From contig CAVXDX010000014.1 of assembly GCA_963760615.1 (NCBI GenBank), forward strand, positions 32,001-96,000: a stretch of DNA of 64,000 bases. The letters run 5' to 3'. The notes beneath the pieces were generated by a model. That model did no database searches. It was not told the origin of the DNA and worked only from the letters and a program-made list of their open reading frames with translations. The DNA comes from an uncultured Candidatus Micrarchaeota archaeon. Its GTDB lineage: Archaea > Micrarchaeota > Micrarchaeia > Burarchaeales > Fermentimicrarchaeaceae. Within the stretch, counting starts at the first letter, position 1. Each line of letters begins with the position of its first letter. Shown here one piece after another: positions 29,394-50,623 of this stretch. Made by a program: the position numbers and the translations under genes.

Positions 29394-29440
29394 CTAATTC
29401 CGCATCAAAAAATATTACCACTGCCTAGCCCAAGCCTCGC

Positions 29441-30289: not shown

Positions 30290-30599
30290 ATTTGGATTGG
30301 CGCATGCGCTGTTGGTGGTTGGCCTGTTCGCCGGCATCCTGCTGGCCCAGGCTCCGCTCCAGATACCGCAGGACCAGCCAATATGCAGGCTCTATGGAAT
30401 GATCCAGGTGCTCGGAACGGTTGCCGGAGTGCTGGTTGCGGCATACGCGGGCTTCATCCTGGCAAGCTCGAACGAGATAGAGGAGAGGAACAAGGCAAAG
30501 CACCTGATAGCAGGGGTGATAACCGGGCTGATCATCATCTGGATAGCTCCCCTTGTGGTGAAGAGCCTTGTGGGAGCAACCGACGTGTGCGGGTGGTGA
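30282..30599 (+). CDS. TrbC/VirB2-like pilin 1
   Basis: Signal-like N-terminus; two TM helices; ERNKAKHLIAGVITGLIII motif; GGAGGTGA RBS. Confidence 0.75.
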   Translation: MNKFGLAHALLVVGLFAGILLAQAPLQIPQDQPICRLYGMIQVLGTVAGVLVAAYAGFILASSNEIEERNKAKHLIAGVITGLIIIWIAPLVVKSLVGATDVCGW

Positions 30600-30600
30600 G

Positions 30601-30831
30601 ATGGCTGCAATAGATTTCAGCAGCATTGCCCTGTCGCTCAAGGCACTGGCAGTTTTCTTCAGCGTGATCGTATGCGCATACGCCGGTTTCGTGCTGATGA
30701 CGAGCGAGAGCCCGGAAACAAGGAACGAGTGGAAGGAGATCATTGCAGGCGTGATCATAGGGCTGTGCATCCTGTTCCTGGCACCCATCATGGCGGGCCT
30801 GCTTACGGGAGGCTCTTACTGCGGGAGTTGA
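30601..30831 (+). CDS. TrbC/VirB2-like pilin 2
   Basis: AYAGFVLMTS..ETRNEWKEIIAGVIIGLCILFLAP, paralogous to pilin 1. Confidence 0.72.
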   Translation: MAAIDFSSIALSLKALAVFFSVIVCAYAGFVLMTSESPETRNEWKEIIAGVIIGLCILFLAPIMAGLLTGGSYCGS

Positions 30832-30835
30832 TTGC

Positions 30836-33379: not shown

Positions 33380-33383
33380 TTTC

Positions 33384-34190
33384 ATGAGCTACGACATTCC
33401 GGACAAAGTCAGGTACAGGGAGAAGATAGTGTTCGGGCTGGACGGGAAGCAACTCATTTATGCATTGCTGTTTGGAATTGCGGCAGTCCTCGTATATAGC
33501 CTGCCTTTGCGGGGCGATCTTAGGCTTGTTGCTCCAGGGATAATAGAGCTGACCGGCATTGGGTTCATATTCCTAGGCTTTGAGGAAAAAACAAGGGCGC
33601 GCTGGTCGTATGTAAGGGCGGTTTTGCTGAAAGACAAGAAGGAGAGGTTTGCTAGAAAAGTAATACAAGTGAATGATATTGGTGAGGACAATTTTGTATT
33701 GGCAAATGGGGAGATAAGGGCGGTCCTGGAAGTCAGGCCTTTGAATTTTGCGCTTTTTGATGAGGACAGGAAGAAGTCGCTTATCAGCAACTACCGGGAT
33801 TTCCTGAACCACCTTACCTACCATGTCCAGATACTGGTGAGGACCACAAGCCTCAGCCTTGATGAGTATTATGCAGCCTATGAAAGCAGGGCAAAGGGAA
33901 TTGAGAACGAAGCCCTGAAGGAGCTATATCTGGACTTTAAGGGGTATGAAACCGAATTTCTGAAACTGAATGATGTCAAGGAACGGAGCTATTTCCTGAT
34001 AATCTGCCTCAGGCCTGACTCAAAAGACAAGGAGGAAGCAGCAAGGAAGCTTAGTGAACGGGTTGTGATTATACGGGAAAAGCTGACCGATTGCGGGATT
34101 GAAAGCAGGAGGTTGGGAAAAGGCGAACTCCTCCCGTTCATAGCTTCATATTTCGCCGCAGGTGAGCAGGGAGGTGCGGGTAATGGATAA
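33384..34190 (+). CDS. PrgI/VirB3-like conjugation protein
   Basis: YREKIVFGLDGKQL, two TMs, AVLEVRPLNFAL..FLNHL...VQI. Confidence 0.78.
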   Translation: MSYDIPDKVRYREKIVFGLDGKQLIYALLFGIAAVLVYSLPLRGDLRLVAPGIIELTGIGFIFLGFEEKTRARWSYVRAVLLKDKKERFARKVIQVNDIGEDNFVLANGEIRAVLEVRPLNFALFDEDRKKSLISNYRDFLNHLTYHVQILVRTTSLSLDEYYAAYESRAKGIENEALKELYLDFKGYETEFLKLNDVKERSYFLIICLRPDSKDKEEAARKLSERVVIIREKLTDCGIESRRLGKGELLPFIASYFAAGEQGGAGNG

Positions 34191-36502: not shown

Positions 36503-36640
36503 TATACATAGCATAAGAGCTGCGCGATATTGCGGTTTCTGGCAACCAGAGCATATGAAAAATAAGGAATCAGCTGCGCAAAGTTGTTTATAAAGCGTTG
36601 CGCAGCTTCAAATAAGGGAATGCCTCGGTTGCTTGTGAAT

Positions 36641-37264
36641 TTAATGCAACAAGACGTTAATAATCAGATGAATGAGGATAGGTGCGATGAGAGAGTTCGT
36701 ATCCACATACGAAAGACCGTATATCACACTAATTATCAAGATATATATAAAATTAAGCGGTTGGGACGGCCCTACATGAATCATTCCAAATAGTAGCGAA
36801 GTTAATATCACTGCAAATGGCAGATTGTCGTACAACTTAAGAAGTCTTCTAAGCATAAAACCCCGGAACACAATTTCTTCGAAAATTGCACCAATAAGAA
36901 AGCTAACAATCACCGCAGGAGTCCTATCATTAAGAATCTTTATACCAAATGGAATGAATATTGCTATCCACAATACCAGAAGAGAAAACCAAAAGAAAGA
37001 CTTGATAACAAATGCAAGCTTATTTTGAGGGATGCCAATGCCTATGTCGCTCATGCTCTGTTTTGATACATGGAGCTCTGCTGCAAGGAAAACAGCGATA
37101 ATGAGCAGGCTACACCACTCGAATACAAAACTACACCATGGAGGGAGACTATTCCGTATACCCATTAGTATTAAGGCAACTACAACCACTAAGAAAGCTT
37201 CCACGTATTTAGAAGTTTTAGTTCTATTTTTTGATTTTGTTTTCCCTGCCATATCCACAATCAA
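36641..37264 (-). CDS. CPBP/CAAX (Abi) intramembrane metalloprotease
   Basis: EEIVFRG, FGMIH, H..IN motifs. Confidence 0.88.
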   Translation of the reverse strand: MIVDMAGKTKSKNRTKTSKYVEAFLVVVVALILMGIRNSLPPWCSFVFEWCSLLIIAVFLAAELHVSKQSMSDIGIGIPQNKLAFVIKSFFWFSLLVLWIAIFIPFGIKILNDRTPAVIVSFLIGAIFEEIVFRGFMLRRLLKLYDNLPFAVILTSLLFGMIHVGPSQPLNFIYILIISVIYGLSYVDTNSLIAPILIHLIINVLLH

Positions 37265-37292
37265 CCAGCCTATATCCGTTTATTTGTTTTAT

Positions 37293-37463
37293 CTATAAGT
37301 CCTGCGGCATTATCGTATGCCTACCATTCTTCTCGGCCCTCTCGCAGGCTTTTTTCAGCAGCTCCTCAACAATGCTGTCCAACTTTTCATAAGTTGCAGT
37401 TGCAACTCTCTTCTTGTTCTGCTTCAGGAATGTTTTCACGCTTCCCTTTGTTACAAAGTCCAA
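37293..37463 (-). CDS. Histone-fold protein, 56 aa (not in ORF track)
   Basis: MDFVTKGSVKTFLKQNKKRVATATYEKLDSIVEELLKKACERAEKNGRHTIMPQDL; AGGTGG RBS overlaps the end of cdc6; TTG start. Confidence 0.85.
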   Translation of the reverse strand: MDFVTKGSVKTFLKQNKKRVATATYEKLDSIVEELLKKACERAEKNGRHTIMPQDL

Positions 37464-37464
37464 A

Positions 37465-38595
37465 CTAACCACCTTTTTTGGTTTCTTTTAACCTTATCAA
37501 CCTTGGTTTAAGCATCGAATCGCTGTTACTTGGATCTTCGACTTCGGCAGTTTCTATGATTCCCTTTGCCTCAAGCAGACTTATGTAATTCCTTATCTGC
37601 CTCTTTGTTTTCGTAATTTTGAGCTGGAACTCATCATAGAGCTGCGTTGATGTCTTTTCACCTTTCATAAGAATTTCCAGGATAAGCCTCTCCTCTTCGC
37701 TCAGACTAAGATTAGAAGTCTCGAAGGATAAGTGCTTTATTTCTTTTGCTTTCTTTTCATAGGTTGTTTTCTCTAGCACTGCCTCAAAATCAGCAAATTC
37801 GATTTTCTTTGCGTCCCTCTTCTCCGCATGCTTCGCTGACTTCCACAGGAGCTCAAGCGCAAGCCTGGCATTCCCGCCATTTGCGCAGCCGATCCTAGCG
37901 CAATGCTGCAGCAGGGAATCGTCCCATGCCCCGGCGGCAAGCGCAAGCTTTGCCCTTTCCTTCAGGATTGAGACAAGCTGCTCTTGCGTGTATTCCTTGA
38001 ATTCCATCTGTGTAAATCTCAGCGAGCTCCTTATGCGCATATCCAGGCTTGCAAGGAATTTTATGTTATTTGAAATCCCGATGATGCCGAAGAGTATGCC
38101 ATCCTTCTCATTTGCACGTGAAAGAGTGTAAAGTAATTCCTGTTCCCGATGAAAAGCAAGGCTGTCTACCTCATCAAGGATTAGCAGGACTGTTACATTT
38201 TCCCTTTTCATAGTTTCAAGTATGCTGTCAAAAACCTCATCAGTTGCCAAGCCTCTTCTTGGAAGCGCAAGCTCCATAGTTTGATGGATTTGCGAATAAA
38301 CGGCCATCTGGGTGGGATACTCCCAGCAGTTTACGTATACCGAAAGGACTTTTGAGGTTTGTTCTTTTAGCTGTTCCAAAATGAGCTTGGCACAGAGGGT
38401 TTTGCCGGTTCCAGAGGGACCATAGATGAAGAGGTTATCCATCTTCTTCCTTTTCAGAAGCGGCTTGATTGCGGCTGCGATCTCTTGTAGCTCCGCCTCC
38501 CTGTGCAGGGCCTCGGGTGGGGCGTAATCAGGCATTAATATTTCTTCCTTTGCGATTATGCCATTACCACTGCTGTTATAGAAAAGCTGTTTCAC
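37465..38595 (-). CDS. cdc6: Element-encoded Orc1/Cdc6 replication initiator
   Basis: GPSGTGKT, YVNC, LILDEVD, GNARLALELL, C-terminal wHTH. Confidence 0.92.
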   Translation of the reverse strand: MKQLFYNSSGNGIIAKEEILMPDYAPPEALHREAELQEIAAAIKPLLKRKKMDNLFIYGPSGTGKTLCAKLILEQLKEQTSKVLSVYVNCWEYPTQMAVYSQIHQTMELALPRRGLATDEVFDSILETMKRENVTVLLILDEVDSLAFHREQELLYTLSRANEKDGILFGIIGISNNIKFLASLDMRIRSSLRFTQMEFKEYTQEQLVSILKERAKLALAAGAWDDSLLQHCARIGCANGGNARLALELLWKSAKHAEKRDAKKIEFADFEAVLEKTTYEKKAKEIKHLSFETSNLSLSEEERLILEILMKGEKTSTQLYDEFQLKITKTKRQIRNYISLLEAKGIIETAEVEDPSNSDSMLKPRLIRLKETKKGG

Positions 38596-38656
38596 ACTCC
38601 CACTAGCCTTAATTATGCATGTGTGGTATTTTAAATTTAAGCCTCAATTCTTTGAA

Positions 38657-38681
38657 ATTTCTGCGGAAATGACGGGTCTAA
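38657..38681 (-). promoter_or_regulatory. Putative operator TTAGAC-N5-ATTTCCGCAGAAAT upstream of cdc6
   Basis: Matches 29344-29368 at 19 of 20 non-spacer positions. Confidence 0.55.
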
Positions 38682-38734
38682 TGAAGGCAATAATTATAAA
38701 TACTGCTGTCTTTATAGTATGTGGGGGTTAATGA

Positions 38735-39610
38735 TTGAAACTATTACAGGGTGTAAAGGTGGACGATATACCTATAGAACTAAACGAAATTAAAAATCAG
38801 TATTTAATAGGAGATTGTAAAGATGTTTTATCATTAAAAGTTCCAGCTAATACCTTTGATCTAATACTTACATCACCTCCTTATGCAGACAGTAGAAAAA
38901 ATACGTATGGCGGGATATCCCCGGATAAGTACGTCGGGTGGTTTGTTGAGAGATCCAATGAATTCTTGCGCGTGCTTAAACCCTCAGGGACGTTTATTCT
39001 GAACATTAAAGAAAAGGTAGTTGATGGAGAAAGACATACCTACGTTCTTGATCTTATACAAGAGTTAAAAAGACAGGGTTGGATTTGGACGGAAGAGTTC
39101 ATCTGGCATAAGAGGAATACCCATCCGGGTAAATGGCCCAATAGATTTCGTGACGCTTGGGAGAGATGCCTGCAGTTCAATAAAACAAAAAAGTTTAATA
39201 TGTACCAAAAAGAGGTTATGGTGCCTATAGGGGACTGGGCCCAGACCAGATTAAAAAATCTTTCTGAAAATGATAAAAAGAGAATGGCATCTAACGTCGG
39301 TAGTGGATTCGGTAAAAACATTTCTAAATGGCTCGGGAGAGATATGGTTTATCCAGATAATGTTCTTTATTTACCTACGGAATCAAGCAACAAAAATCAT
39401 AGTGCCGTATTCCCTGTTGATTTGCCTTTGTGGTTCATCAAACTCTTTACTAAAAAAGGAGATTTTGTGTTGGATCCATTTGCAGGATCAGGAACTACCG
39501 CAGTTGCTTGCAAAATCTTGGAGAGAGACTACCTTATGATTGACATAATGGAAAAATATAAGAAGGTTGCCGAAGAAAGAATAAAATGTGAAGCAGATAA
39601 ACTTAGATGA
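38735..39610 (+). CDS. Type II R-M methyltransferase (beta class, probably N4-C)
   Basis: TSPPY, HSAVFP, DPFAGSGTT; overlaps the endonuclease gene. Confidence 0.92.
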   Translation: MKLLQGVKVDDIPIELNEIKNQYLIGDCKDVLSLKVPANTFDLILTSPPYADSRKNTYGGISPDKYVGWFVERSNEFLRVLKPSGTFILNIKEKVVDGERHTYVLDLIQELKRQGWIWTEEFIWHKRNTHPGKWPNRFRDAWERCLQFNKTKKFNMYQKEVMVPIGDWAQTRLKNLSENDKKRMASNVGSGFGKNISKWLGRDMVYPDNVLYLPTESSNKNHSAVFPVDLPLWFIKLFTKKGDFVLDPFAGSGTTAVACKILERDYLMIDIMEKYKKVAEERIKCEADKLR

Positions 39611-40328
39611 CGTCAAAAAATTTGTTGAAGATAACATCCAAGAATTCCATAAAGGTCGTTTAGCCTCTCTGGAAAAAACTAACCTCAAGGATTTGATAAA
39701 GAGAAAAAATCCGTATCTGTTCAAGGCAAAAAATATCGAGACCGCACAAGACCTTATAGAGTCTCTTTTAGATGCTAAACTCTCTTCTTCTGAGGAAGAA
39801 ATCATGGGAGCATTTTTGGAGGATTTGGCAATCTTCGTGGCAAGTAAGACTCTAAATGGACATAAATCTGCATTGCCGGGAGTTGATCTAGAATTTACTG
39901 GGGGTGGGGTGCATTATTTAGTCGGTATTAAATCCGGGGAGAATTGGGGCAATAGCAGCCAATGGAAAGCTTTGGAAAGTGATTTTAGACGCCACTCCAA
40001 ACGTTTTCGGAATGCAAAATGTTATCTCGGGATATCATACGGTAAAACAAAACCTACATTAAAAAGAGGTATAATACACCAGATTAGTGGCCAAACATTT
40101 TGGCATTTTGTAAGTGGGAAAAAGAACTTTTATAAGGAGATAATCGAACCGATAGGATACAAAGCGAAAGAACTTAATCATGAATTCAATCATAATAAAG
40201 CCAGATTGATAAATAGACTTACTCGTGAATTTTCAAATGATTTTTGCGATAAGGACGGAAGGATACTTTGGGATAACATAGTTGAATTTAATTCGGGTAA
40301 TATGACAAGAATGACTTTGCTGACTTAA
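39588..40328 (+). CDS. Type II restriction endonuclease (PmeII/EcoO109I-like)
   Basis: KRKNPYLF, SEEEIMGAFLE, GVDLEF..IKSG.NWGNS. Confidence 0.8.
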   Translation: MKQINLDDVKKFVEDNIQEFHKGRLASLEKTNLKDLIKRKNPYLFKAKNIETAQDLIESLLDAKLSSSEEEIMGAFLEDLAIFVASKTLNGHKSALPGVDLEFTGGGVHYLVGIKSGENWGNSSQWKALESDFRRHSKRFRNAKCYLGISYGKTKPTLKRGIIHQISGQTFWHFVSGKKNFYKEIIEPIGYKAKELNHEFNHNKARLINRLTREFSNDFCDKDGRILWDNIVEFNSGNMTRMTLLT

Positions 40329-40356
40329 TTAATTTATGCGCAAAGCCGAGAAATTT

Positions 40357-40566
40357 TTATTTGTTTAGACTCGTTTTCTTTATAAAAACCCTGAATCCTC
40401 TCCTTTCTATCTCAATCTTCTCTCTTGCCTGCATTTCTTGGATGAATTCCAAATATTTCTTCACCGTCCTCGGGTGCAGCTTGGAAGCTCGGCAAAGCTT
40501 GTTGAACGTGACCGGCTCATCCGAGAGAGCCGCCATGATCTTCTCCGCAATCTCGAGCTGCACCAT
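40357..40566 (-). CDS. Small winged-helix DNA-binding protein (regulator or directionality factor candidate)
   Basis: VTFNKLCRASKLHPRTVKKYL HTH, 69 aa. Confidence 0.7.
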   Translation of the reverse strand: MVQLEIAEKIMAALSDEPVTFNKLCRASKLHPRTVKKYLEFIQEMQAREKIEIERRGFRVFIKKTSLNK

Positions 40567-40636
40567 AAGGACACCATTAAACGGCCTGCTTAGTTAGGTG
40601 CGCCAAGGGATAATTGCCTTGCCGCAGACAGGCTCG

Positions 40637-40687
40637 TTCCTAGGAAATCAGTTGCGGAAGTCTTTCCTGGGAAGCGGTTCCGCGGAA
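40637..40687. repeat. Array of TTCC-NN-GGAA palindromes at about 14-bp period
   Basis: TTCCTAGGAA at 40637, half-site GCGGAA at 40654, TTCCTGGGAA at 40664, TTCCGCGGAA at 40678. Confidence 0.6.
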
Positions 40688-40962
40688 GTGGAGCGTGTCT
40701 TGCAGGCATGATACGAAACTGCCGAATTCGGCACAAAGGGATAAATCCACTCGGCACGCCACTCGAGGCATGACAGAAGAAGAGGTTGACAGCCAGCTGC
40801 CTAGGTGGTACGTGGAGCTGAAGAAGGCTTACAAGGAACGCTTGGAAGGGCAGAAGAAAGATGGGCTGGGAAAGTCGTAATTGAGGGAAAGGAGTATACG
40901 GTTTAAATCGGTTTTTTGCTTATAGCTACATCGCATTAGCAATAGCAAGAGGTGATGGTTTT

Positions 40963-41535
40963 ATGAAATGCCCTAATTGTGAGAAAGAAATAACAGATGA
41001 GAGAGCGAATTATTGCGGCCTATGCAGTTATTGGCTGAAAGAACCGCCATACAAGAGCTATTTGGAAAGATTACACGAAGAGGGCAAGCACGAAATAACT
41101 AAAGTTGTAATCCCACTGCTGCATGAGAAATATGATTTTTTTGAAAAGTTGAGGAAAGAACACCCCATGCAATACAAGCAGGTAAGGGAATCCAGGGATT
41201 TTTTTGAACTAGGGTTTTTGTTCGGGTTTTACGAGGGGATAGCCGACAGGATGAAAGAGGAAATCAAAGAAAAGGAGGATAAAGTGGGTACGAACCCGCC
41301 ACCAAAGAGAGATCATATCGAGGTACCAAGTAGCGGGAAAAGCGGTTTTGAGATTGTCAAGCTTTACAACTACCCTGAAAAGAACCATGCTATAATCCGG
41401 CTTAAAAAAGGCACCATAGAGAACCTGGGCTTGCCGTATGATGTGCAGTATAACAAACCAATGTTGGCAGAGGTCAGGAATGGCGTTTTGCTGCTTAAGG
41501 TTATCAAGGAGTTGATTCATGATGAGTTCGAGTAG
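40963..41535 (+). CDS. Hypothetical protein with N-terminal zinc ribbon
   Basis: CPNC..CGLC; GAGGTGA RBS. Confidence 0.65.
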   Translation: MKCPNCEKEITDERANYCGLCSYWLKEPPYKSYLERLHEEGKHEITKVVIPLLHEKYDFFEKLRKEHPMQYKQVRESRDFFELGFLFGFYEGIADRMKEEIKEKEDKVGTNPPPKRDHIEVPSSGKSGFEIVKLYNYPEKNHAIIRLKKGTIENLGLPYDVQYNKPMLAEVRNGVLLLKVIKELIHDEFE

Positions 41536-41680
41536 TAAGCAGGAAGTATATACCTTACATAGAGCAATATCGCACGACTATGCTTCGGATTAGTGTTTTA
41601 CAAGTTCTCAGTCTTTTTTATGCGTATTTCGGTCATTCCAAGCAAAAACAGATTTAAACAACTTCAAATAATATGTACAT

Positions 41681-42298
41681 ATGAAAAAAACGGATTTCAG
41701 AGAGACTAGGACGCAAGTCACGAAGAAACGACTTAGCAATGTTTATCAGCGGATTCAGGAGGCATTGGAGAGCAATTGTGAGAACCTCACTCTTGAACGA
41801 ATAGAAGAACTTAGAACACAATTTATAGAAGAGTATGCGGATCTTATTGACTACTCATTCGACCGTGCTCTCAGAAAAATACTGGGAAGTAAGACGTTGA
41901 TAGAGTTGGGATATGTAGAAGCAGAAACAAGAGATTCGGAAGGTGCTGACTACGAAGCATTAGCATTAAAATATGCAGGTCTTCCCCCGCATCCACTTTC
42001 CAATTTAACTCCCGGCATGAATCGTATAAATAGTCTGGAGCTGACTATAATAGAACTCAACGCGCCAGAATATTTTGAATTTGAAAAAGGACCCTACAAA
42101 TTCATCCGCGGCCGAGTTAAGGACTCTTCCGGGGACTTTCCCATATTATTTTGGGGTGACCAAGGTGATAGAATACACATCGGAGACAAAATAAAAATAA
42201 TAAACGCTTATGTCAAAAAATATGAAGACGACGAGCGAATACACATAAAAGGGGGACCATTTCTGGTTGTTGCAAAAAGAAGCCTTATTTTGCCATGA
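41681..42298 (+). CDS. Protein with C-terminal SSB-like OB fold
   Basis: VKDSSGDFPILFWGDQGDRIHIGDKIKIINAYVK resembles the host SSB at 9733. Confidence 0.7.
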   Translation: MKKTDFRETRTQVTKKRLSNVYQRIQEALESNCENLTLERIEELRTQFIEEYADLIDYSFDRALRKILGSKTLIELGYVEAETRDSEGADYEALALKYAGLPPHPLSNLTPGMNRINSLELTIIELNAPEYFEFEKGPYKFIRGRVKDSSGDFPILFWGDQGDRIHIGDKIKIINAYVKKYEDDERIHIKGGPFLVVAKRSLILP

Positions 42299-42299
42299 T

Positions 42300-43511
42300 C
42301 TAAACCGGAATCGCAACTCCGTTTTTGATAAGCTTCTCCACAACCATCTTCTTGAACTCGGGATCATTCATCAATTTATTCATTATCTCGTCAGCATTTT
42401 TCCTTTCCTCCTCAACCTGCGCCATCATTTGCGCGTTCATCGGAGTTCCGCAGCGCAGGCAGAACTTCGCCGCCGGGGAATTCTTCTCCCTGCAGCGGGG
42501 GCAGAAGCAGACCTTCAGCTCCTCCTCTTTTTTATCTTCGGGCTTCGCCATGCCCTGCAACGCCAGAAGCGCTTGGTCAACATCCCGGCCGGACAGATGA
42601 ACATAAACGGAAGCCATGTCGCTGTTCTGGGTCCAGCCGAAGTACTCCTTCATCTGAGCTTCCGTGAGCTTGGAGGCGAGGAATGTGGCCCTGGAATGGC
42701 GGAACAGGTGCGGGTAGATCTTCTTCTTGATTCCTGCCTTCTCTGCCAGGGTTTCGAGCACCTTGTAGACCGACCGGTGCATCGCGGCAAGGTTTGTCGC
42801 GTGGTTGTTGTTCGAGCGGGGTGGCCAGAGCACGGCTTCCGGGTCTTTCGCCCCTTCGTAATGCTCGAGCCACGATGCCAAGGCAGGTGCCGAGCTGATG
42901 ATCCTCACGCGCCTGTCGCCGGTCTTGCCTGTCACCCTCAAGGTCGCGCCGTACTGGTCGAAAGCGACGTTCTTCACCCTGAGGGAAAGCAGCTCGCCGA
43001 TGCGGCAGCCTGTCTCGTACAGGACAAGCACCATGGCCTTATCTCGGGGCGTCTTTGCAGCCTCCACCATCCTCAGGACTTCCTCCTCGGTCAAGAGGGA
43101 TTCGGGCAACTTGTGGCTGTGGTTCCTCACTCTCGGCCTGAGCCAGGAGACCTCGCGGGGCATCTGCTCATCATCCCCTTTGAGCCACTTGTAGAACATC
43201 TTCAAAATGACCTTGAAGTCGTACTTGGTGTTTTCCGCGTACTCCTTGCTTTCGATGCTGCCGACCAGCGCTATGATGTCTTCCTTGGTAGCCTGTTCGA
43301 AGGGCTTCCCGAGCCAGCCCGACAGCCTGCGGAGGCAGTAGATAAGCTTCACAACACGCACCTTGGTGAACCCCTTGGCCAGCCAGGTGTTGGCGAATTT
43401 GAGTATGAGCTGCCTGTTCTGGGGCAGCACTGCCTCGTCCTTATCCAGCCTGGCAAGGGCCGCATCCAGGTCCGTTGTGCTGCCGTATATCGAGCCTCCG
43501 CTGATTCTCAT
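42300..43511 (-). CDS. int: Tyrosine recombinase/integrase with C-terminal zinc ribbon
   Basis: GCRIGE, GKTG, HLFRHS, FGW, YVHL catalytic set; CPRC..CLRC. Confidence 0.95.
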   Translation of the reverse strand: MRISGGSIYGSTTDLDAALARLDKDEAVLPQNRQLILKFANTWLAKGFTKVRVVKLIYCLRRLSGWLGKPFEQATKEDIIALVGSIESKEYAENTKYDFKVILKMFYKWLKGDDEQMPREVSWLRPRVRNHSHKLPESLLTEEEVLRMVEAAKTPRDKAMVLVLYETGCRIGELLSLRVKNVAFDQYGATLRVTGKTGDRRVRIISSAPALASWLEHYEGAKDPEAVLWPPRSNNNHATNLAAMHRSVYKVLETLAEKAGIKKKIYPHLFRHSRATFLASKLTEAQMKEYFGWTQNSDMASVYVHLSGRDVDQALLALQGMAKPEDKKEEELKVCFCPRCREKNSPAAKFCLRCGTPMNAQMMAQVEEERKNADEIMNKLMNDPEFKKMVVEKLIKNGVAIPV

Positions 43512-43559
43512 GGTAATGCCTCTGGGAACAGGTCTATATTTTGCTTGGTGCAGGATTCC

Positions 43560-43576
43560 GCACTTTCGTGTCTATA
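43560..43576 (-). promoter_or_regulatory. Motif TATAGACAC-N4-GTGC upstream of the integrase
   Basis: Ends 49 bp before the int ATG; the copy at 29377 ends 48 bp before its ATG. Confidence 0.5.
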
Positions 43577-43601
43577 TGCCCTTTTCCACCTTGAGCTTAA
43601 T

Positions 43602-43711
43602 CCTCTGGTTGCGGTCGGAGCACTGAGCCATAGGCTCAGGTTGCCACCCGCCCAAGCGATTTTGCCTTGTTCCTGAGGGTGGTTCTGAGTGGCAAGGTTT
43701 AAATAGACTGC
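43602..43711 (+). repeat. att site 2: class A left arm, core (43612-43622) and conserved right arm
   Basis: CCTCTGGTTG-CGGTCGGAGCA-CTGAGCCATAGGCTCA...CTTGTTCC..GGTTCTGAGTGGCAA.GTTTAAATAGACTGC. Confidence 0.92.
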
Positions 43712-43765
43712 TACGACTCTTCGTACGTTATTGGAAAGCGCTTGATTTAACAACCAGGGGATATG

Positions 43766-43783
43766 TCATTTCCGCGGAAATGA
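43766..43783. promoter_or_regulatory. 18-bp perfect palindrome TCATTTCCGCGGAAATGA
   Basis: Same family as the sites at 29355 and 38657. Confidence 0.55.
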
Positions 43784-43809
43784 GGTGACCACACTCGTGG
43801 ATTTTGTAG

Positions 43810-44751
43810 TCACCTTTTCTTGAGCATCTGTTTGAGCGCACGGTATTCTTTCAACATCAGTTCAATAGTTGGCCGAAGGTTGTGGTTTTTCTCGTAAGCC
43901 TGCAGTGCTGCGTAGTACTGCTGTCGGTTCTTGAGTTCGATATTAATTGGCGGCATCTTGTGCTGTATAAGGATGTTGTTCAGCAGGAGCCTTCCAACCC
44001 TCCCATTTCCATCCTGGAATGGGTGAATATTCTCAAATTGATTATGGACTACTGCAGCTAAAACTAGTGGCGAATAGCGGTTTTTGTTTTTATCATACCA
44101 TCTGACAAGCTCCAGAAGCAGGACTCGGACACGTGTTGAAGGCGCTCCCCGGTGGACTATTCCTCCGCGTCCGTCCGTTACCACAACTTCCACTCCATTC
44201 TCCCTTAACTTGCCGGCAAAAGGCTTTGAGTTTTCAAAAACAATCCGATGCAGCTCAAGAATGAGCGGCAGCGAGAGATGATCACCGGTTTTCCTTATGA
44301 ATTCGATGGCCTTTGCTACCCCGTAAGTTTCCGAGATGTCTTCTTTTGATTTGTCCGGCCATTTATTCTTTTCGAGTATCTCCGCAACTTCTTTTGGATC
44401 TATGGTGGAGCCTTCAATTGCGTTGGTGCTGAATGTGAAAGCTTCCGTGAACTTTACCCAGTCTTCATCGGAAAGGTGTGCTATTTTTATGTGCGCCTTT
44501 GCCTCCAGGGTCCTTAATTCCTCAAGCTCTTCGGATGATAAAACAGTCTCAAATGGATCGGAAATTTGCCTGCTTGCATCCACCCGTGCGCTAAGTTTTT
44601 TCTTTGCATCCTCTATACGCCGTTGCAACTCACTCTCGCTGAGGTTAGACCCCAGGTATACCCTAAGCTTTCTGACCTTTCCAGCCTTTCTGATGGAGTG
44701 GGCAAGATAGTACTTTTTTATGCCCTTTCCTTCACGGATCTCTAAGTGCAT
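43810..44751 (-). CDS. fic: Fic domain protein (class II, self-inhibited)
   Basis: HPFQDGNGRVGR catalytic motif; TNAIEG inhibitory motif. Confidence 0.93.
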   Translation of the reverse strand: MHLEIREGKGIKKYYLAHSIRKAGKVRKLRVYLGSNLSESELQRRIEDAKKKLSARVDASRQISDPFETVLSSEELEELRTLEAKAHIKIAHLSDEDWVKFTEAFTFSTNAIEGSTIDPKEVAEILEKNKWPDKSKEDISETYGVAKAIEFIRKTGDHLSLPLILELHRIVFENSKPFAGKLRENGVEVVVTDGRGGIVHRGAPSTRVRVLLLELVRWYDKNKNRYSPLVLAAVVHNQFENIHPFQDGNGRVGRLLLNNILIQHKMPPINIELKNRQQYYAALQAYEKNHNLRPTIELMLKEYRALKQMLKKR

Positions 44752-44880
44752 AATGTTATTGGGTGACTACTATTTATAAATATTTGCATTAAAGGTGACT
44801 ACTAGTTGGTAAAGCTCCTCGCTAGTCTGTGAAGAATTAGGGTCCACACGGGTTTTAGGGGGCACATATTCCTGCATATG

Positions 44881-44917
44881 GCAACCTGAGCCCTTGCCTC
44901 TGGTTGCGGTCGGAGCA
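44881..44917 (+). repeat. att site 3: class A arm plus core
   Basis: 37 bp identical to 48887-48923. Confidence 0.92.
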
Positions 44918-45078
44918 CTGCCGGAGATCGGAACTGGAAATAATGCCTAGTTTCAAGCCAAAAAGAGGGAAGTGGGCGGAAGGGGTTGCTCCGGAAAATG
45001 GTCTGCTCTGCCGGAAACTCTGTGTTTTGTTGCATTTCTGGAGCATGTTTAAATATTGGAAAATGCATAAACTAATCC

Positions 45079-45984
45079 ATGGTCTTTAGAGAGAAGGAAT
45101 CCAGAGAACTTCCTGCTTTCGATAAGATTCAGATAAAGGGTACTCTCTCGGAAAGATTCAAGGATCATTTTGAGGATCATCCATTAAAAATTCTTGACAC
45201 CAACTTCTATAGGAATAAGTTCGCCTTAGAATGGTTTGACAAGATAGTCCACGATCTTAAGAAGACTCAGAGCAACATAACCATAAATGAGATAGGTCTT
45301 GGCATAGAAGACAAGATAGGAAAATATGAAATAAAATTTCGCCTTGGAGAAATGAGATTAAAGCTGAAGGAAATGCTGGCACCGAAGAAAACAACCTATG
45401 AGACTTTCGAACTGTTGAATATTCTGAGAAATGCAGGCATAAAACCAGAACAGTTCAGTCTCTATGCAATGGATATAAGGGAGGATGTGCTGCTTGCAGT
45501 GAAGTCAACAAAGGTGCTGAAGGTGGTTACTTCCAAGCTGCTTGCTGACATGCCAACCGATGTCCTGGAGAATGAAAGCGCTAAGAGACTTACGATTGAG
45601 GAGAATGAATACGCTAAGAAATTCTTCCCTGATCTACAAGGCAAGAGTAGGAACAGTAAAGAGCCCTCGCTCGCTAGGGTACTGGAAGTGCGGATACCAC
45701 GGAATTATGCCAATAGGGTTGTGTGTCCTGAACCGCTTGACATCACGAAAACTCCTGCTCCAGTGAAGGCGGACATAACCTTTTCCTACATATTTTCCTG
45801 CCCGGAGAGGGAAGAGCGCTTTTCCAATCTTGCAAAAAGCACAAAGCCAGGTGGATACATTATAACTGAACTTAGTGAGGAGATTAGCCCTGCTTTCTTG
45901 GAGAAAATTGGCGTAGAAAAAGTATTTAGTAACCCTGGTCATATAATGGAGGGGTGCGTCTACAGGGTCAAGCCAACAGCATAA
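45079..45984 (+). CDS. Divergent CheR-like SAM-methyltransferase-fold protein
   Basis: TNFYRN, EIGLG, YAMDIREDVL, KFFP, ADITFSYI, TKPGGYI; paralog of 48083. Confidence 0.55.
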   Translation: MVFREKESRELPAFDKIQIKGTLSERFKDHFEDHPLKILDTNFYRNKFALEWFDKIVHDLKKTQSNITINEIGLGIEDKIGKYEIKFRLGEMRLKLKEMLAPKKTTYETFELLNILRNAGIKPEQFSLYAMDIREDVLLAVKSTKVLKVVTSKLLADMPTDVLENESAKRLTIEENEYAKKFFPDLQGKSRNSKEPSLARVLEVRIPRNYANRVVCPEPLDITKTPAPVKADITFSYIFSCPEREERFSNLAKSTKPGGYIITELSEEISPAFLEKIGVEKVFSNPGHIMEGCVYRVKPTA

Positions 45985-46023
45985 TTGTTCTCAGATGTGA
46001 CTTTTCTGGGCAATCCTAAGTGA

Positions 46024-46063
46024 GGGGATTTAAGAACTCGTAGACATAAGCTCGGTCGGAGCA
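46024..46063 (+). repeat. att site 4: class B arm plus core
   Basis: 36/40 identical to 47830-47869. Confidence 0.88.
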
Positions 46064-46129
46064 ATTTACTTTTATCTGAGTACTCTCCCTTAGCTCAACA
46101 GAAGAACATGCGTCCCTTAGTGACGTTTT

Positions 46130-46603
46130 TCAGGGGAACACAGTCAAATCCCCAAGACGATTTTTCAGCTCCCCCTGGCAGTATTCAATGCCGTAGATCA
46201 GAGATGTAACCCACCTTTGGTCAAACTTTCCCCTTTCATACATGCAGGTCATGTTCTTTCCCTGAAGCAGGTTCTTCATCTCCTGGCTTTCATTGGCGTT
46301 CAAGCTTACAAGCGTCTTTGTAAAGATGCAGGATTCAGAGGACGAGTAGCTGAAAGTCCCGACCTCGTCAGTAACGGTTAGATTTATATTCTCGCAATTA
46401 TTTGCCGCTGCGATGAAGCATGTTTCGTCCCCGCAGGTCGCATTTGTTGAAGGTGCAATCGTTAAGTTTTGTGTATTGTTTGTGGAAACATTCTGGGCAG
46501 GAGGGAAAAGTCCACAACAGCCTGCCAAGAAAAGAAAAATTCCTGCCGTCAGCAAATATGCAACTCGCATTTCTATGATTTTTTGTTTTATCATAATTCT
46601 CAC
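46130..46603 (-). CDS. Putative lipoprotein/exported Cys-rich protein
   Basis: Hydrophobic stretch ending LAGC; paired cysteines; GTGA overlap with upstream gene. Confidence 0.65.
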   Translation of the reverse strand: MRIMIKQKIIEMRVAYLLTAGIFLFLAGCCGLFPPAQNVSTNNTQNLTIAPSTNATCGDETCFIAAANNCENINLTVTDEVGTFSYSSSESCIFTKTLVSLNANESQEMKNLLQGKNMTCMYERGKFDQRWVTSLIYGIEYCQGELKNRLGDLTVFP

Positions 46604-47637
46604 TTAACAGCTACGGCATTCACGACATCCTTGTTAAGACCTAGTGTTAAAAAAAGCTTTTCACTCCAGGTGCTTGTGTCGGAGGATTCTTTCTGGACAT
46701 CCATGTCATATAAGCCTCCTTGCCAGTTACCCTTTTCACTGCTCATTTTTCTCATCAACAAGCTGTTATCCGGTTTTGGGAATTTTGAGAAGCCCAACTC
46801 CTTGGCGAGGTTCTTTTCCATCGCTTCCTTCATGCTCTCGGTTACCGCTCCGCTGTTTAATGCCCTGTCCATATACTCATAGTATTCATGGGGCAGTCCT
46901 TGGGTTTTCTTCAGCTCGGCCATGTCCACGTTTGCCTCGAAGTTGTTTGGATCTGCTTTAAGTATTGCGTTGTATTTTGCCTCGATAGACGGTTCTAAAT
47001 TGTCTATCTGGTCCTGCTTTTGTTTGAGTTCAGCAGCGGTTTGGGGGGTGTTTAAAAGAAGATTCTGAGCCCTTAAAAAAGGGATTTGGTTGCGTAGATC
47101 GAAATCATTGTTCAAATCGTCGCGTGCGCTTGAAATTTGCTCCTCAGTTGTCAGTTCCGGCGGCTTGCTTGGAGGAATTACGACAGTTGGAGCCGGGCAA
47201 CCATTTACAATTCTTCCGCTGAATGTAGTGGAACCACTGCACGAACCTTCTGAATCGCTATACTGCCAGGTGTAACTCCCAGTAAATGTCAAACAATCTG
47301 AGCTAAAGGTCACGTCATAAGGTGATAGTACTGAAGTTCCATAGCCATCGGGAACCGACCTGCCGGGTATATGAAGGACGTTGCCGTCAACTATTCCGCT
47401 AGTCACCCCATGACCGATATCCCCCATCTGAGCATGTTTTAGATTGAACTGTATCGTAATGGTAGGATGAGTAACTATAACCCCGCTTTGGCAATCACGT
47501 TCATCATCGCTAACATCTACACGCCATTGGGTGGTGCCGGTATATTGATCCCAACTCCAAGGAGGCAGCGAGACCTCGGCTCTAACCAAGTGTATTAGAA
47601 GCAGTGCTGAAATAAGCAGTACAGCAATTCTGGGCAT
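46600..47637 (-). CDS. Secreted protein: beta-rich N-domain, Pro linker, TPR-like C-domain
   Basis: Signal peptide (VRA-EV); YNAILKADPNNFEANVDMAEL. Confidence 0.65.
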   Translation of the reverse strand: MPRIAVLLISALLLIHLVRAEVSLPPWSWDQYTGTTQWRVDVSDDERDCQSGVIVTHPTITIQFNLKHAQMGDIGHGVTSGIVDGNVLHIPGRSVPDGYGTSVLSPYDVTFSSDCLTFTGSYTWQYSDSEGSCSGSTTFSGRIVNGCPAPTVVIPPSKPPELTTEEQISSARDDLNNDFDLRNQIPFLRAQNLLLNTPQTAAELKQKQDQIDNLEPSIEAKYNAILKADPNNFEANVDMAELKKTQGLPHEYYEYMDRALNSGAVTESMKEAMEKNLAKELGFSKFPKPDNSLLMRKMSSEKGNWQGGLYDMDVQKESSDTSTWSEKLFLTLGLNKDVVNAVAVK

Positions 47638-47829
47638 GTTAATGCTTTCTGCGTTAATTGTTTAAATATTTACTCCTCGGCAGACGAATTCTGCCAAGGC
47701 GTGCTTTATCCTGTTTATCAAGGTGTCAGAATTTCTAGGAAGGACAGGGTGCTGTTGTTGTCATGCAACTGACATTGTATTGTAATCTGCTCTGCTAGAT
47801 ATACTAGACAAAAGCAATTTTAAATGTGG

Positions 47830-47954
47830 GGGGATTTCGGAACTCGTAGACAGATGCTCGGTCGGAGCACTGAGCCATAGGCTCAGTTCCTCACTTTTGC
47901 GGAATATATTCTTGTTCCCGACATGGTTCAGCCTGTGAGCTTTATAAAGACTGC
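47830..47954 (+). repeat. att site 5: class B arm, core (47859-47869) and conserved right arm
   Basis: GAACTCGTAGACA..GCT-core-CTGAGCCATAGGCTCA..CTTGTTCCC..GGTTC..TTTATAAAGACTGC. Confidence 0.9.
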
Positions 47955-48082
47955 GTCTATGGAAGCAATTTTGTCATCTAGCTGATAATTTGACCGGCTT
48001 GTTGAATTGGTTGTTTTGTGCCTTGATAATCGGTGTTGTAAAGATGATACTTATTTTAATGGAGAAAGAGTAAGATAACTTA

Positions 48083-48847
48083 ATGACAACCAAGCAGAAA
48101 CAGCCCAGCGAGGAGAATTTTAACCAGTTTAGGAAGGAACTGGATAAGAGAGTTTCTCAAGAAATTATGCAGAATCAGAATCAAAATATAGAGAATATAA
48201 TGACCTGGTTTGGAAGGCATCCATGGGCAACCTTGCAATTCGGCAAGAGATTGTCAGAATTCAAAGACTCAAATGAGATAATCAGGGTCAACAACATAGG
48301 CATAGGAATTAGAGGTATAGGGGATGAAGGAGAGCGGGTACCACCTAATATGAAATCTCACTATATTTCGTACGAACCTTTAGAGCTGCTCAACCAAGCA
48401 GCTAAGATTCTGGAGCCAAAACAGCTGATATTTTATGCAGCAGATACACGAATGGATACACTATTGCATCTTAAATCAACAAAAACCGTACGGATGCATG
48501 AATACCTGCACAGAGAGTATTTCAAGGCATTTTTTCCCGAAGTCTTGCACAGGAAAGAGGGGGATAACATCGCAGTGGATATACCGGAAGAGTGGAAGGA
48601 CAGGATAGTCTATCTCAAGCTCAATATCCTAAAACAGCCAGCACCGGTCAAGGCGCATGTAACATTCTCATACATCCTAGACCTTTACCAGAGGCCTGAG
48701 TATTTTGAGAACCTTGTTGCAAGCACGAAGAGGGGAGGCTATGTGTTCTGCGCAGCGGGACCGAGGGATGAAACACTCAAGAAATTAAATGTTGAGTGGA
48801 TACACCCCGTGAGATATCCTGAGCCCGGCTTATTGCACCTCAGATAG
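48083..48847 (+). CDS. Divergent CheR-like SAM-methyltransferase-fold protein
   Basis: TWFGRHP, NIGIG, YAADTRMDTL, AFFP, AHVTFSYI, TKRGGYV. Confidence 0.55.
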   Translation: MTTKQKQPSEENFNQFRKELDKRVSQEIMQNQNQNIENIMTWFGRHPWATLQFGKRLSEFKDSNEIIRVNNIGIGIRGIGDEGERVPPNMKSHYISYEPLELLNQAAKILEPKQLIFYAADTRMDTLLHLKSTKTVRMHEYLHREYFKAFFPEVLHRKEGDNIAVDIPEEWKDRIVYLKLNILKQPAPVKAHVTFSYILDLYQRPEYFENLVASTKRGGYVFCAAGPRDETLKKLNVEWIHPVRYPEPGLLHLR

Positions 48848-48886
48848 TATAGTTGATGCTTATTTGAGTGAGGTTTGTGAATAGTA

Positions 48887-48923
48887 GCAACCTGAGCCCT
48901 TGCCTCTGGTTGCGGTCGGAGCA
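48887..48923 (+). repeat. att site 6 (outermost attR): class A arm plus core
   Basis: Identical to 44881-44917; not followed by an element arm. Confidence 0.92.
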
Positions 48924-48956
48924 TTTATGATTTAAGTGCTCTGGCTTGCAATGGGA

Positions 48957-49946
48957 CTACGTACCGAAAGGAAAGCTGCCAACATCTGCAGTATTGGTAT
49001 AGCCCCTCGACTCCCAGTAGCCCTCAACTTCCTTGTCAACAACTTCGATGCTAGTTATCCACTTCGCCCACTTGTAACCGTACTTGTGCTCCGCAACAAG
49101 CTGGAATGGGAAGCCTCTCTCGGGGGGAAGTGTAACATCGTTGATGCCGTATGCCAAGAGCAACCGCTTGCTTCTTATGTAATCCAAGGGCAGCCCTGTT
49201 GAGTAGCCATCGGAGGAATGAAAAACCACGTATGCTGCATTGGGTTTAAGTTTTGCGCGGTCTAGCAGATCTGTCAAGCGGAATCCAGTCCACTTTGCAG
49301 TGAACCCCCATCCCTCCACGCATGGCATATAGGCAACCTCCGAGTAAGCAGGCAGCTTCAGCAGCTCATCATAGGAAAGGTTAAGCTCATCTTCAACCAA
49401 GCCGGTCAGCTGAAGCCTGTAAGCTTTCCTGTCTATGTACTGCGTCCCCAGAATTGCATTGTTCCCCTGCTCGCTGAGGAGAGTTAGTTTCATACCCTGG
49501 AATTCCTTTGCCTCAACCTCTGGCAGAGTGCTTGAAGCTGGAACCTGCAGAGTTTGATTCTGGGGGGCTAACTGCCCAGGCACAGTATTCACCAGACCGG
49601 TAAGTAGCATCACTCCACCCAGAAGTGATGCAAAAGCCAGAGCGGCAGCAAGATAGCCGACCCAGTAGTGCTGCGCAGATCTTTTCTTGGAGACTGCAAT
49701 ACTAGCAAGGTTATAAAGAGAAACTAGCAATGCGGCTGTTCCAAGCCAAATGTGGAGTTTGTGCATATCCCAACCAGCAAGGTTAAAATTACCTTCATAA
49801 ATGTAGCCTATGAGTCCGATTATTGCAAAGAAAGCCATTGCATAGCCAATGATTTTGTGCTGGTTTTTATTCTTTACAAAAACAAGCAGGATGGTTAAAA
49901 TTGCAGCAATGGCAGAAGGAATCCAGTGCAGCTCTGAGAATACCAT
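48957..49946 (-). CDS. Membrane-anchored molybdopterin oxidoreductase (MsrP/sulfite oxidase family)
   Basis: Four N-terminal TMs; PCVEGW, DGYSTGL, LPPERGFP, YGYKWAKW, GYWESRGY. Confidence 0.88.
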   Translation of the reverse strand: MVFSELHWIPSAIAAILTILLVFVKNKNQHKIIGYAMAFFAIIGLIGYIYEGNFNLAGWDMHKLHIWLGTAALLVSLYNLASIAVSKKRSAQHYWVGYLAAALAFASLLGGVMLLTGLVNTVPGQLAPQNQTLQVPASSTLPEVEAKEFQGMKLTLLSEQGNNAILGTQYIDRKAYRLQLTGLVEDELNLSYDELLKLPAYSEVAYMPCVEGWGFTAKWTGFRLTDLLDRAKLKPNAAYVVFHSSDGYSTGLPLDYIRSKRLLLAYGINDVTLPPERGFPFQLVAEHKYGYKWAKWITSIEVVDKEVEGYWESRGYTNTADVGSFPFGT

Positions 49947-49954
49947 GTCTAGGT

Positions 49955-50623
49955 TTACTCCGGCATATGGCTGCCATCGCAGAATGGCTTGTTTGAAGAC
50001 TTACCACAGCGGCATAGAGTGACTCTGTTGCGGATTTCATAGGTGAAGCCATCGCAGGATTCTATTGGAATACCTCCGCGCACCCAGATGGGACCGCCGG
50101 CTCGTGCCTGTGGGTCCTCCACTAGACCGATGGATTTCTCAAATATGGGCTCGATGGCTTTTCCGGTTTTTTTATCATGAACTACAAGTCTGCCAGAAGG
50201 ACAGTTTACTGCCTCCTCTATTGCAAGCTTTACAGCATTGTCTTCATTCTGCATCACAAGCTCCCAAACTCCACTTGCTCTGTCGCAGAAACGGGCTACG
50301 GCGCAAAGTTCCTCGGCATCAGTCAACTTAAGAGCCGGGCCTTGGATTACTTCGGCACGCTTTGCATAAGGCTCTCTGCCCGCAGTCTCAGTTCCGTCAA
50401 ATTTCACCTTGGCGTGCGTCCCGTCACAGAATGGCTTGTTTTTGGACTGCCCGCAGCGGCAAAGGTAGTAATTTTCCTGTATTGGGTATTTCTCCCCCTC
50501 GCGCCATTCACAGGGATAGCCGTTGGAGTCAAGTATAATCATCTGTTTTGCAAGCGGTATTCCACCAGAAACAGAGTAAGGCCCATCCTTGATTAATTTA
50601 ATCCTATAATTCAATCCAGCCAC
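49955..50623 (-). CDS. CDGSH iron-sulfur protein (two CDGSH motifs plus divergent ferredoxin-like segment)
   Basis: LCRCGQSKNKPFCDGTH, CAVARFC..CPSGRL, LCRCGKSSNKPFCDGSH. Confidence 0.93.
   Translation of the reverse strand: MAGLNYRIKLIKDGPYSVSGGIPLAKQMIILDSNGYPCEWREGEKYPIQENYYLCRCGQSKNKPFCDGTHAKVKFDGTETAGREPYAKRAEVIQGPALKLTDAEELCAVARFCDRASGVWELVMQNEDNAVKLAIEEAVNCPSGRLVVHDKKTGKAIEPIFEKSIGLVEDPQARAGGPIWVRGGIPIESCDGFTYEIRNRVTLCRCGKSSNKPFCDGSHMPE

Follow-up and report, generated by a model that had tools for sequence, protein, structure and literature searches.

Introduction

Integrative elements that accumulate side by side at one chromosomal site have been described in several groups of prokaryotes. 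The attachment (att) sites used by ICEs (integrative and conjugative elements) and by IMEs (integrative and mobilisable elements) in Streptococcus and other Firmicutes are associated with tandem accretion and with cis-mobilisable elements, CIMEs (PMC5704250, where the CIME and accretion work of Pavlovic 2004 and Bellanger 2011 is cited). Islands of tycheposons reside at tRNA genes of Prochlorococcus (10.1101/2020.12.28.424599), and tandemly integrated elements and "gene capture" by integrase loss have been reported for archaea (reviewed in PMC8371274 and PMC6563490, which cite She et al. 2001 and 2004). Integrons and integrase-less attC clusters have also been found in archaeal metagenome-assembled genomes (10.1101/2022.02.06.479319). 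In the present study we analysed a locus at which the 3′ end of a tRNA-Glu(CUC) gene is followed by a tandem array of gene units, only the first of which carries an integrase. The array is located in a stretch of 64,000 nucleotides (the window) of an uncultured Candidatus Micrarchaeota archaeon (assembly GCA_963760615.1, contig CAVXDX010000014.1, positions 32,001 to 96,000), to which all coordinates without a contig name refer.

DPANN archaea have tiny genomes, and their gain of accessory genes is little understood. A sequence-only reading of the window had interpreted the locus as an archaeal integron-like system, i.e. a shuffleable library of cassettes moved by the neighbouring integrase. 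As described below, the locus is a real, well-delimited, tRNA-anchored accretion array, composed of one autonomous-looking element and four non-autonomous units with two families of ends. It represents a hotspot at which genes accrete and slowly turn over, as opposed to a true integron.

Results

The tRNA-Glu 3′ end is the core of a tandem array

The host genome (G000; metagenome-assembled, 1.14 Mb in 16 contigs) can be assigned to the Micrarchaeota (DPANN; genome of ~1.1 Mb) on the basis of close homologues of the integrase and homologues of the cargo genes, which are named Candidatus Micrarchaeota. Exact searching of the window revealed six copies of the 3′-terminal 11-mer of tRNA-Glu(CUC), at 23312, 43612, 44907, 46053, 47859 and 48913, all on the + strand and separated by core-to-core intervals of 20300, 1295, 1146, 1806 and 1054 bp; the six copies and the four short intervals listed in the sequence-only reading were thereby confirmed. 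The chance expectation for this 11-mer in the window is 0.01, none of 100 shuffled sequences reached six copies, and the array holds its only occurrences in the whole 1.14-Mb genome. No tRNA was detected by Rfam at the five other core copies. The tRNA gene was reconstituted at the integration of unit 1, the 11-bp core being present at both ends of this element. Units 3, 4 and 5 occur in the same order on a 4029-bp contig of the Logan assembly, generated with a different assembler and probably from the same sample. The features of the array are listed in Table 1.

Table 1. Features of the tRNA-Glu array and its flank in the window
Feature	Position	Strand	Evidence and remarks
tRNA-Glu(CUC)	23248..23322	+	ARAGORN; Rfam tRNA 57.9 bits; terminal 11 bases (23312-23322) form the repeated core
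Unit 1 (E1), ends A..X, 20.3 kb	23323..43622	+	Plasmid/ICE-like; Pfam and arms
Arm A of unit 1	23323..23410	+	Hairpin directly after core; repeat families D2 and D3, alignment
Tyrosine integrase, 403 aa, C-terminal zinc ribbon	42300..43511	-	PF00589 E=1.3e-21; PF13240
Arm X + core, unit 1 right end	43586..43622	+	Family D1, 78% to reference copy
Unit 2 (E2), 1295 bp, ends A..X, cargo Fic	43623..44917	+	Alignment and repeat families
Fic/DOC-family protein, 313 aa, akin to SoFic-type defence candidates	43810..44751	-	PF02661 E=6e-20; PADLOC SoFic 8e-34
Arm X + core, unit 2 right end	44881..44917	+	Family D1; 37 nt 100% identical to 48887-48923
Unit 3 (E3), 1146 bp, ends B..Y	44918..46063	+	Alignment and arms
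301-aa protein of unassigned family	45079..45984	+	Pfam, NCBIfam, PADLOC: no match
Arm Y + core, unit 3 right end	46020..46063	+	Family D4
Unit 4 (E4), 1806 bp, ends C′..Y, two genes	46064..47869	+	Alignment and repeat families
157-aa uncharacterised protein	46130..46603	-	Unit 4; hydrophobic N-terminus, signal-peptide-like
345-aa uncharacterised protein	46600..47637	-	Unit 4; hydrophobic N-terminus, signal-peptide-like
Arm Y + core, unit 4 right end	47826..47869	+	Family D4, 89%
Unit 5 (E5), 1054 bp, ends A (subtype 2)..X	47870..48923	+	Alignment and repeat families
254-aa uncharacterised protein	48083..48847	+	35% identity to the 301-aa protein of unit 3, BLASTP E=2e-23
Arm X + core, unit 5 right end, final core of array	48887..48923	+	Family D1
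Variable flank past last core: molybdopterin oxidoreductase-domain protein and CDGSH iron-sulfur protein	48924..50623	-	Pfam; synteny

Two families of unit ends

Alignment of the six junctions, combined with a repeat search, defined several arm types, three of which follow the core (A, B and C-like) and two of which precede it (X and Y). The units had been described as lying between conserved arm sequences; such arms exist, but they do not constitute one pair. Arm A is found directly after the core at 23323, 43623 and 47870, the short arm B at 44918, and C-like flanks at 46064 and 48924. Arm A contains a perfect hairpin with a 7-bp stem, followed by conserved blocks that extend over ~90 nt up to a TATA-like box. 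Arm X, 26 nt long and sharply delimited on its outer side, precedes the core at 43586, 44881 and 48887, and arm Y (33 nt, its two copies 89% alike) at 46020 and 47826. The arm families as a whole are sharply bounded. Units 1, 2 and 5 are therefore of the A..X type, whereas units 3 and 4 end in Y. Where unlike arms meet (X|B, Y|C′ and Y|A), the junctions have in common only the 11-bp core.

In the joined sequence X-core-A, as it would stand in a circular form of unit 1, one short word is repeated three times, twice directly and once inverted (pairs I5 and I6); these repeats are putative recombinase binding sites. As to the native flank of the tRNA gene, the relatives disagree; it may be B-like or C-like, or may consist of an A-like hairpin.

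Unit 1 is an autonomous-looking element

As judged by Pfam analysis, unit 1 encodes a VirB4/TraG-like ATPase, Cdc6/Orc1, two DNA methylases, an EcoO109I-type endonuclease, HD and beta-CASP nucleases, and the integrase. The latter is placed, as had been proposed, close to the second core copy, ~100 bp from the X end of the unit. It belongs to a family that is abundant in Micrarchaeota, with more than 3000 homologues, the named ones of which originate from this phylum. Unit 1 has the features of archaeal tRNA-integrating elements with a non-partitioning tyrosine integrase, i.e. an intact integrase gene inside the element and direct repeats of the tRNA 3′ end as its ends. The VirB4/TraG-like ATPase gene (34162-36502) is divided into two overlapping open reading frames (ORFs), of 313 aa (the P-loop start) and 485 aa (the rest), which suggests a frameshift.

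In G003, the genome of Ca. Fermentimicrarchaeum limneticum, three identical integrase matches were observed in the region C1:341443-414983, spaced exactly 25,989 bp apart and each accompanied by a second, weaker recombinase match. This looks like a 26-kb element in tandem triplicate.

Integrase-less units and their cargo

Pfam and NCBIfam detected no integrase in units 2-5, and no remnant was recovered by tblastn at E<=10, where the best integrase values were 5.5 for the four units of the window and 0.31 for all eight small cassettes tested. The same searches revealed no integration/excision or transfer genes in these units, and none of their genes is truncated. The description of the units as att-bounded segments with intact genes and no recombinase was thus upheld. 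In front of every gene of units 2-5 there is a TATA-like box, 24-32 nt from the start codon (~25 nt upstream in the case of the Fic gene), and both strands are used. Each cargo gene is therefore predicted to be self-expressed, from its own TATA-like box.

Only the Fic protein of unit 2 could be affiliated with a known family. For the 345-aa protein of unit 4 we found 22 homologues, including the record of the query itself, and the named ones belong to Micrarchaeota. The proteins of units 3 and 5 are members of one family with three paralogues in the host genome (45079-45984, 48083-48847 and G000 C2:6295-7044). Only seven database clusters of this family were found, the single named match being from Ca. 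Fermentimicrarchaeum limneticum. Two of the paralogues reside in separate units of the array, whereas they are adjoining genes on a Joint Genome Institute (JGI) contig of another strain (L157, see below). These paralogues were also considered as a possible recombinase of the units. This was ruled out, since their homologues occur in ordinary, arm-less contexts; moreover, comparable units behind tRNA-Pro and tRNA-Asn (see below) hold unrelated membrane proteins.

The region past the last core is variable, the molybdopterin oxidoreductase-domain gene and/or the CDGSH gene being absent at this spot in several relatives. It is followed by a conserved non-coding/small-ORF block (50758-51078), with a cysteine-rich mini-ORF on the - strand and 86% identity in L148, G004 and L158, which marks the start of the stable chromosomal flank.

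Comparison with integrons and CIMEs

In integrons, each cassette is closed by an attC site, an imperfectly palindromic sequence that recombines in single-stranded, folded form, and the cassettes, mostly promoterless and in one orientation, are expressed from Pc next to attI. The integrase of unit 1 scored 51.8 bits with the integron integrase profile TIGR02249 (cut-off 265) and 38.3 with NF011946 (cut-off 435); its best model is archaeal XerA-like, likewise under its cut-off. A conserved attC-type fold is absent: of the five junctions folded, three (43586, 44881 and 46020) have z-scores of -1.1 to +0.4, and those at 47826 (z -2.6) and 48887 (z -3.5) fold better than shuffled sequences by means of the arm A hairpin and a core-flank pairing, and not by a common attC-type structure. 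The units are neither promoterless nor in one orientation. Membership of the locus among integron-like systems, as originally proposed, could not be maintained.

The features of CIMEs are represented better. Units 2 and 5 have the same attL-/attR-type ends as the autonomous element, which is not the case for units 3 and 4, and genes for integration/excision or transfer are lacking from all four. As to an origin by deletion, unit 2 corresponds to a unit of a sister species from which one gene is missing (see below), and the 5′ end of an integrase gene is kept in one small unit of locus L145, whereas units 3-5 contain no remnants.

The tRNA-Glu locus in sister species and metagenomes

In all five other species of the genus tRNA-Glu is followed by arm A, and the content and order of the units differ among the relatives, i.e. 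they are not identical in all. G003 contains a single 3.2-kb A..X unit with an ABC-2 permease and an ATPase, and no integrase at the locus. The single A..X unit of G006 (2.9 kb) consists of one P-type ATPase gene, so that here too the array is present at the tRNA without an integrase. G004 carries a 4-kb A..X element with an orthologous integrase (93% amino-acid and 88% nucleotide identity), the cargo of which is wholly different from that of the 20-kb element of the window. Behind this element lies a 2.66-kb A..X unit encoding Fic and an AAA_14/DUF4143 ATPase. Unit 2 is 88% identical to the latter, minus 1.4 kb that correspond exactly to the ATPase gene. An 81-bp "empty" B..Y unit was identified in G005. 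In G003, a 669-bp unit with an Imm5-like gene, not located at the tRNA gene itself, has a Y-core on one side and an X-core on the other. The same genome contains, at C1:452952-453631 (L013), two tRNA-Glu cores with X and Y arms in inverted arrangement, 35 kb upstream of the tRNA; this inverted pair, with no tRNA nearby, may have been left behind when att sites recombined in an inversion.

The X-core-A junction was found on eight metagenome contigs. Metagenome contigs add further integrase-less units, carrying radical SAM and ACT genes, mTERF and B3/4-domain proteins, and others; the radical SAM and ACT unit has the same core at its bounds, but does not lie at the tRNA gene itself. In a sample of 401 genomes from the class, exact matches to the X-core junction were restricted to this genus and a single further genome (G150), and X-core singletons with a single mismatch appeared at the control rate. 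A contig scan with an X-core 16-mer yielded 120 matches, mostly in bacteria, which were judged to be due to chance, the pattern being too unspecific. The X-core-A junction had no match in IMG/VR, which we take as evidence neither way, and two matches of a Y-core pattern in that database, on contigs of 67-68% G+C, were dismissed as chance.

Single-gene units at other tRNA genes

Two further units were identified in the host genome: one of 1096 bp behind tRNA-Pro(CGG) (C8:75872-76968, L164) and one of 1022 bp behind tRNA-Asn (C8:138715-139737, L165). Each consists of one membrane-protein gene between 12-nt repeats of the respective tRNA end, and both share a conserved left-arm motif of another type, located a few bases after the core. 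The right arm of the tRNA-Pro unit is Y-like, so that use of the second end family extends beyond tRNA-Glu. The left-arm motif was also detected near C13 47393 and in the metagenome loci L015, L145, L019 and L160; neither an Rfam gene nor a direct repeat was found at the D-type arm on contig C13 of the host genome. At L019 (G005 C42, ~2179), the 22 nt behind tRNA-Thr form a T-loop-like sequence followed by the tRNA-Glu core, which suggests that att fragments of one tRNA can travel into arrays at another.

Strain variation

On the contig L157 (~90% identical to the window), a membrane-protein gene is followed by a Y-core, unit 4 and another Y-core; then come a degenerate core carrying arm B, the gene of unit 3, an incomplete Y arm that lacks its core, and a unit 5-like gene. 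Unit 4 (92% identity) is thus located ahead of unit 3 and has an intact Y-core on either side. It was also found in other strains, at ~90% identity and in other positions. On L158, an Imm5-like gene is followed by a Y arm with a one-mismatch core and by unit 4, immediately after which come the molybdopterin and CDGSH genes. L149 contains the integrase, the unit 2 backbone minus Fic, and then the CDGSH gene, whereas in L146 the integrase is followed directly by the arm A subtype of unit 5 and by a transcription factor B (TFB) gene fragment. The latter, a duplicated C-terminal TFB fragment (L146 2577-2761, reverse-complement; window 55382-55509, 91% identity), is positioned directly after arm A.

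A sequence 89% identical to the cargo of unit 3 (45004-46021) lies within a larger, arm-less element of another strain; in the window this cargo is therefore bracketed precisely by B and Y. Contigs from sediment runs, aligned at 85% likeness, joined 44915 to 46087 with unit 3 absent (run X4), 43711 to 44835 without Fic, and 47673 to 48956, the last two positions being separated by 47 different letters; each is a single contig of a relative (85-95% identity) and hence lends weak support.

Discussion

The array is best explained by an accretion hotspot at tRNA-Glu, built by successive integrations mediated by tyrosine integrases, in which units 2 and 5 are mobilisable relatives of unit 1; we regard this explanation as probable. 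According to it, the 3′ end of tRNA-Glu(CUC) would serve as the integration hotspot of this Ca. Fermentimicrarchaeum-like genome, and successive site-specific integrations would have produced the tandem array. Unit 1 would be the autonomous-looking, plasmid/ICE-like element, with an attachment site, read from its joined ends, consisting of X, the 11-bp core and A, and units 2 and 5 its non-autonomous relatives, in which the same ends surround one self-expressed gene. The integrase of unit 1 could then excise and integrate units 2 and 5, alone or as composites with unit 1 (in trans or in cis, in a CIME-like manner). Units 3 and 4 would represent the second end family (Y), not necessarily served by the neighbouring integrase. 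Over evolutionary time units may have been gained, lost and re-ordered at the cores, while ordinary deletions would strip genes or att sites and so fix the cargo ("capture").

The earlier proposal that the neighbouring integrase moves all the cassettes can be retained in part. Units 2 and 5 share both ends with the integrase element and are therefore plausible substrates of its integrase, which makes their mobilisation by this enzyme plausible. Units 3 and 4 end in Y, and the neighbouring integrase therefore need not act on them. The anatomy of the array, the shared ends, the lack of an integrase in units 2-5 and the differences between strains and species are established by the sequences; action of the integrase on these ends, and present-day mobility of any one of the units, are inferred. 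The notion of a shuffleable library is likewise valid within limits: content and order do differ, as evidenced by L157, by contigs that lack unit 3, unit 5 or Fic, and by the cargo of the sister species, but the turnover appears to be slow and some deletions are independent of the cores.

Several observations weigh against a mobile array. In G004 the integrase module and the Fic unit follow one another as they do here and are 88% identical to those of the window, as compared with 81-88% for the chromosomal flanks; this order and flank-like identity indicate that the pair has been inherited vertically since the species split, with slow turnover. Unit 2 itself seems to derive from the 2.66-kb G004 unit by simple deletion, and one small unit of L145 keeps ~145 nt comprising the integrase start and its upstream region, so at least some small units arise by decay. 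Several of the strain differences are ordinary deletions with end points off the cores: the segment 47746-48956 is absent from L158 and neither of its end points is at a core, and in L157 the scar between the two paralogous genes has no clean core junction. With its split VirB4-like gene, unit 1 may itself be defective. Finally, in G004 and L148 the sequence 3′ of the last core is homologous to arm A, and so in part is an empty-looking site in the outgroup G009; part of the arm is therefore common to attP and attB, i.e. to the element and the chromosomal site.

Some of these points would also fit the view that units 2-5 are internally deleted, immobile full-size elements, and that the array merely records old integrations (gene capture). 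This is supported by the 1.4 kb missing from unit 2, the retained integrase 5′ end in L145, the conserved integrase-Fic order at flank-like identity and the att erosion in L157 and L158, and integrase loss following integration has been documented in archaea (PMC8371274). However, all five non-tRNA cores are intact, the 37 nt made up of X and the core do not differ between units 2 and 5 despite unrelated cargo, and the units lack truncated genes and integrase remnants. Moreover, units 3 and 4 have changed places in L157, where the Y-core junctions are intact, and in the sister species many different complete genes lie between the same short arms. We therefore consider such dead scars unlikely, although they are the most serious of the alternatives. 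The sequence-only reading had itself named deletion-shortened elements with gene remnants as the finding that would speak against it; the units contain no truncated genes, but unit 2 and the L145 unit do show traces of deletion. Re-ordering by general homologous recombination (RadA) or inter-strain exchange across the arm repeats of 40-130 nt, and not by the integrase, seems improbable. The arms are direct repeats with 75-100% identity and some rearrangement end points lie off the cores, which speaks in its favour, but the arms are very short for it, and the fact that the X|B, Y|C′ and Y|A junctions share nothing beyond the core fits a crossover inside the core.

The remaining two explanations have still less in their favour. 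A true integron-type platform (a dedicated integrase, promoterless cassettes, folded attC-like sites and a common promoter) is very improbable. It is resembled in layout only, with the integrase beside a row of short one- or two-gene units, but the integron-integrase models score far under their cut-offs, the arm X hairpin of units 2 and 5 is not found in unit 1 or in relatives, its folding z-scores are unremarkable, each gene has its own TATA-like box on mixed strands, and the recombination core is a tRNA end. That the repeats are an assembly artefact or halves of split tRNAs is hardly credible. The genome is metagenome-assembled, repeats do break assemblies, and some DPANN archaea have split tRNAs; but a second assembler also gives the order of units 3-4-5, the same junction types are present in five sister genomes and eight metagenome contigs, the recurrence is limited to 11 nt, neither the X nor the Y arm is able to form a T-arm, and the five copies are not recognised as tRNA by Rfam.

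Of the described systems, tandem accretion with CIMEs, together with tRNA islands of the tycheposon type, appears to be the closest functional match. As with CIMEs, an autonomous element stands in tandem with units that keep attL/attR-type ends and have lost integration and transfer genes, stacking proceeds by repeated use of one gene-3′-end site, and composite excision is a plausible route. Unlike CIMEs, the host is an archaeon (DPANN), the integrase belongs to an unrelated family, and two unrelated end families share one 11-bp core; in addition, the array units, of 0.7-3 kb with one or two genes, are far shorter and occur in greater number, and their mobilisation is putative. With tycheposons the locus has in common the tRNA-anchored islands of a streamlined genome, the partial tRNA copy between neighbours, the adaptive/defence cargo, the displacement of older elements inward by newcomers, and scattered degenerate remnants; tycheposons, however, are bacterial and their remnants contain fragmented integrases, whereas the units described here are clean, with conserved arms and no integrase fragments. 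Archaeal elements likewise use tyrosine integrases at tRNA 3′ ends with short cores, re-use their sites and in some cases lack an integrase, but the published cases are multi-gene and range from several kb to tens of kb. Integrons are similar in having a tyrosine recombinase beside a row of short, site-closed gene units of strain-variable content; they differ in the IntI-type integrase, the attC fold and the attI/Pc arrangement, none of which occurs here, and in that the site of the array is a tRNA end and its genes are not promoterless. The statement that no such layout had been described in archaea thus requires qualification: tandem integration and integrase loss have been published (PMC8371274, PMC6563490), but we found in the literature no stacks of single genes with shared short arms, nor any such array from Micrarchaeota.

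More generally, Micrarchaeota may carry a distinct class of minimal non-autonomous elements, each consisting of a single self-expressed gene with arms of ~30-100 nt and a tRNA-end core, moved in trans by resident integrases, and with the Y family (B- or D-type left arms) re-used at several tRNAs. We put this forward tentatively, as an idea for which the odds are somewhat unfavourable. If true, such elements would form a cassette store convergent with integrons in function, maintained by ordinary tRNA-site recombination, and would provide a simple recombination system composed of one integrase and a site of ~140 bp.

For the DPANN archaea, the locus provides a concrete route of gene acquisition, in which a tRNA end gathers small, complete genes between short conserved ends in a strain-variable manner. 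As predicted from their sequences, the collected genes span a defence-like Fic protein and ATPase, transporters, an immunity protein and secreted proteins. If resident integrases do move the units, the array would be an archaeal counterpart of CIMEs and tycheposon islands, with the grain of a single gene.

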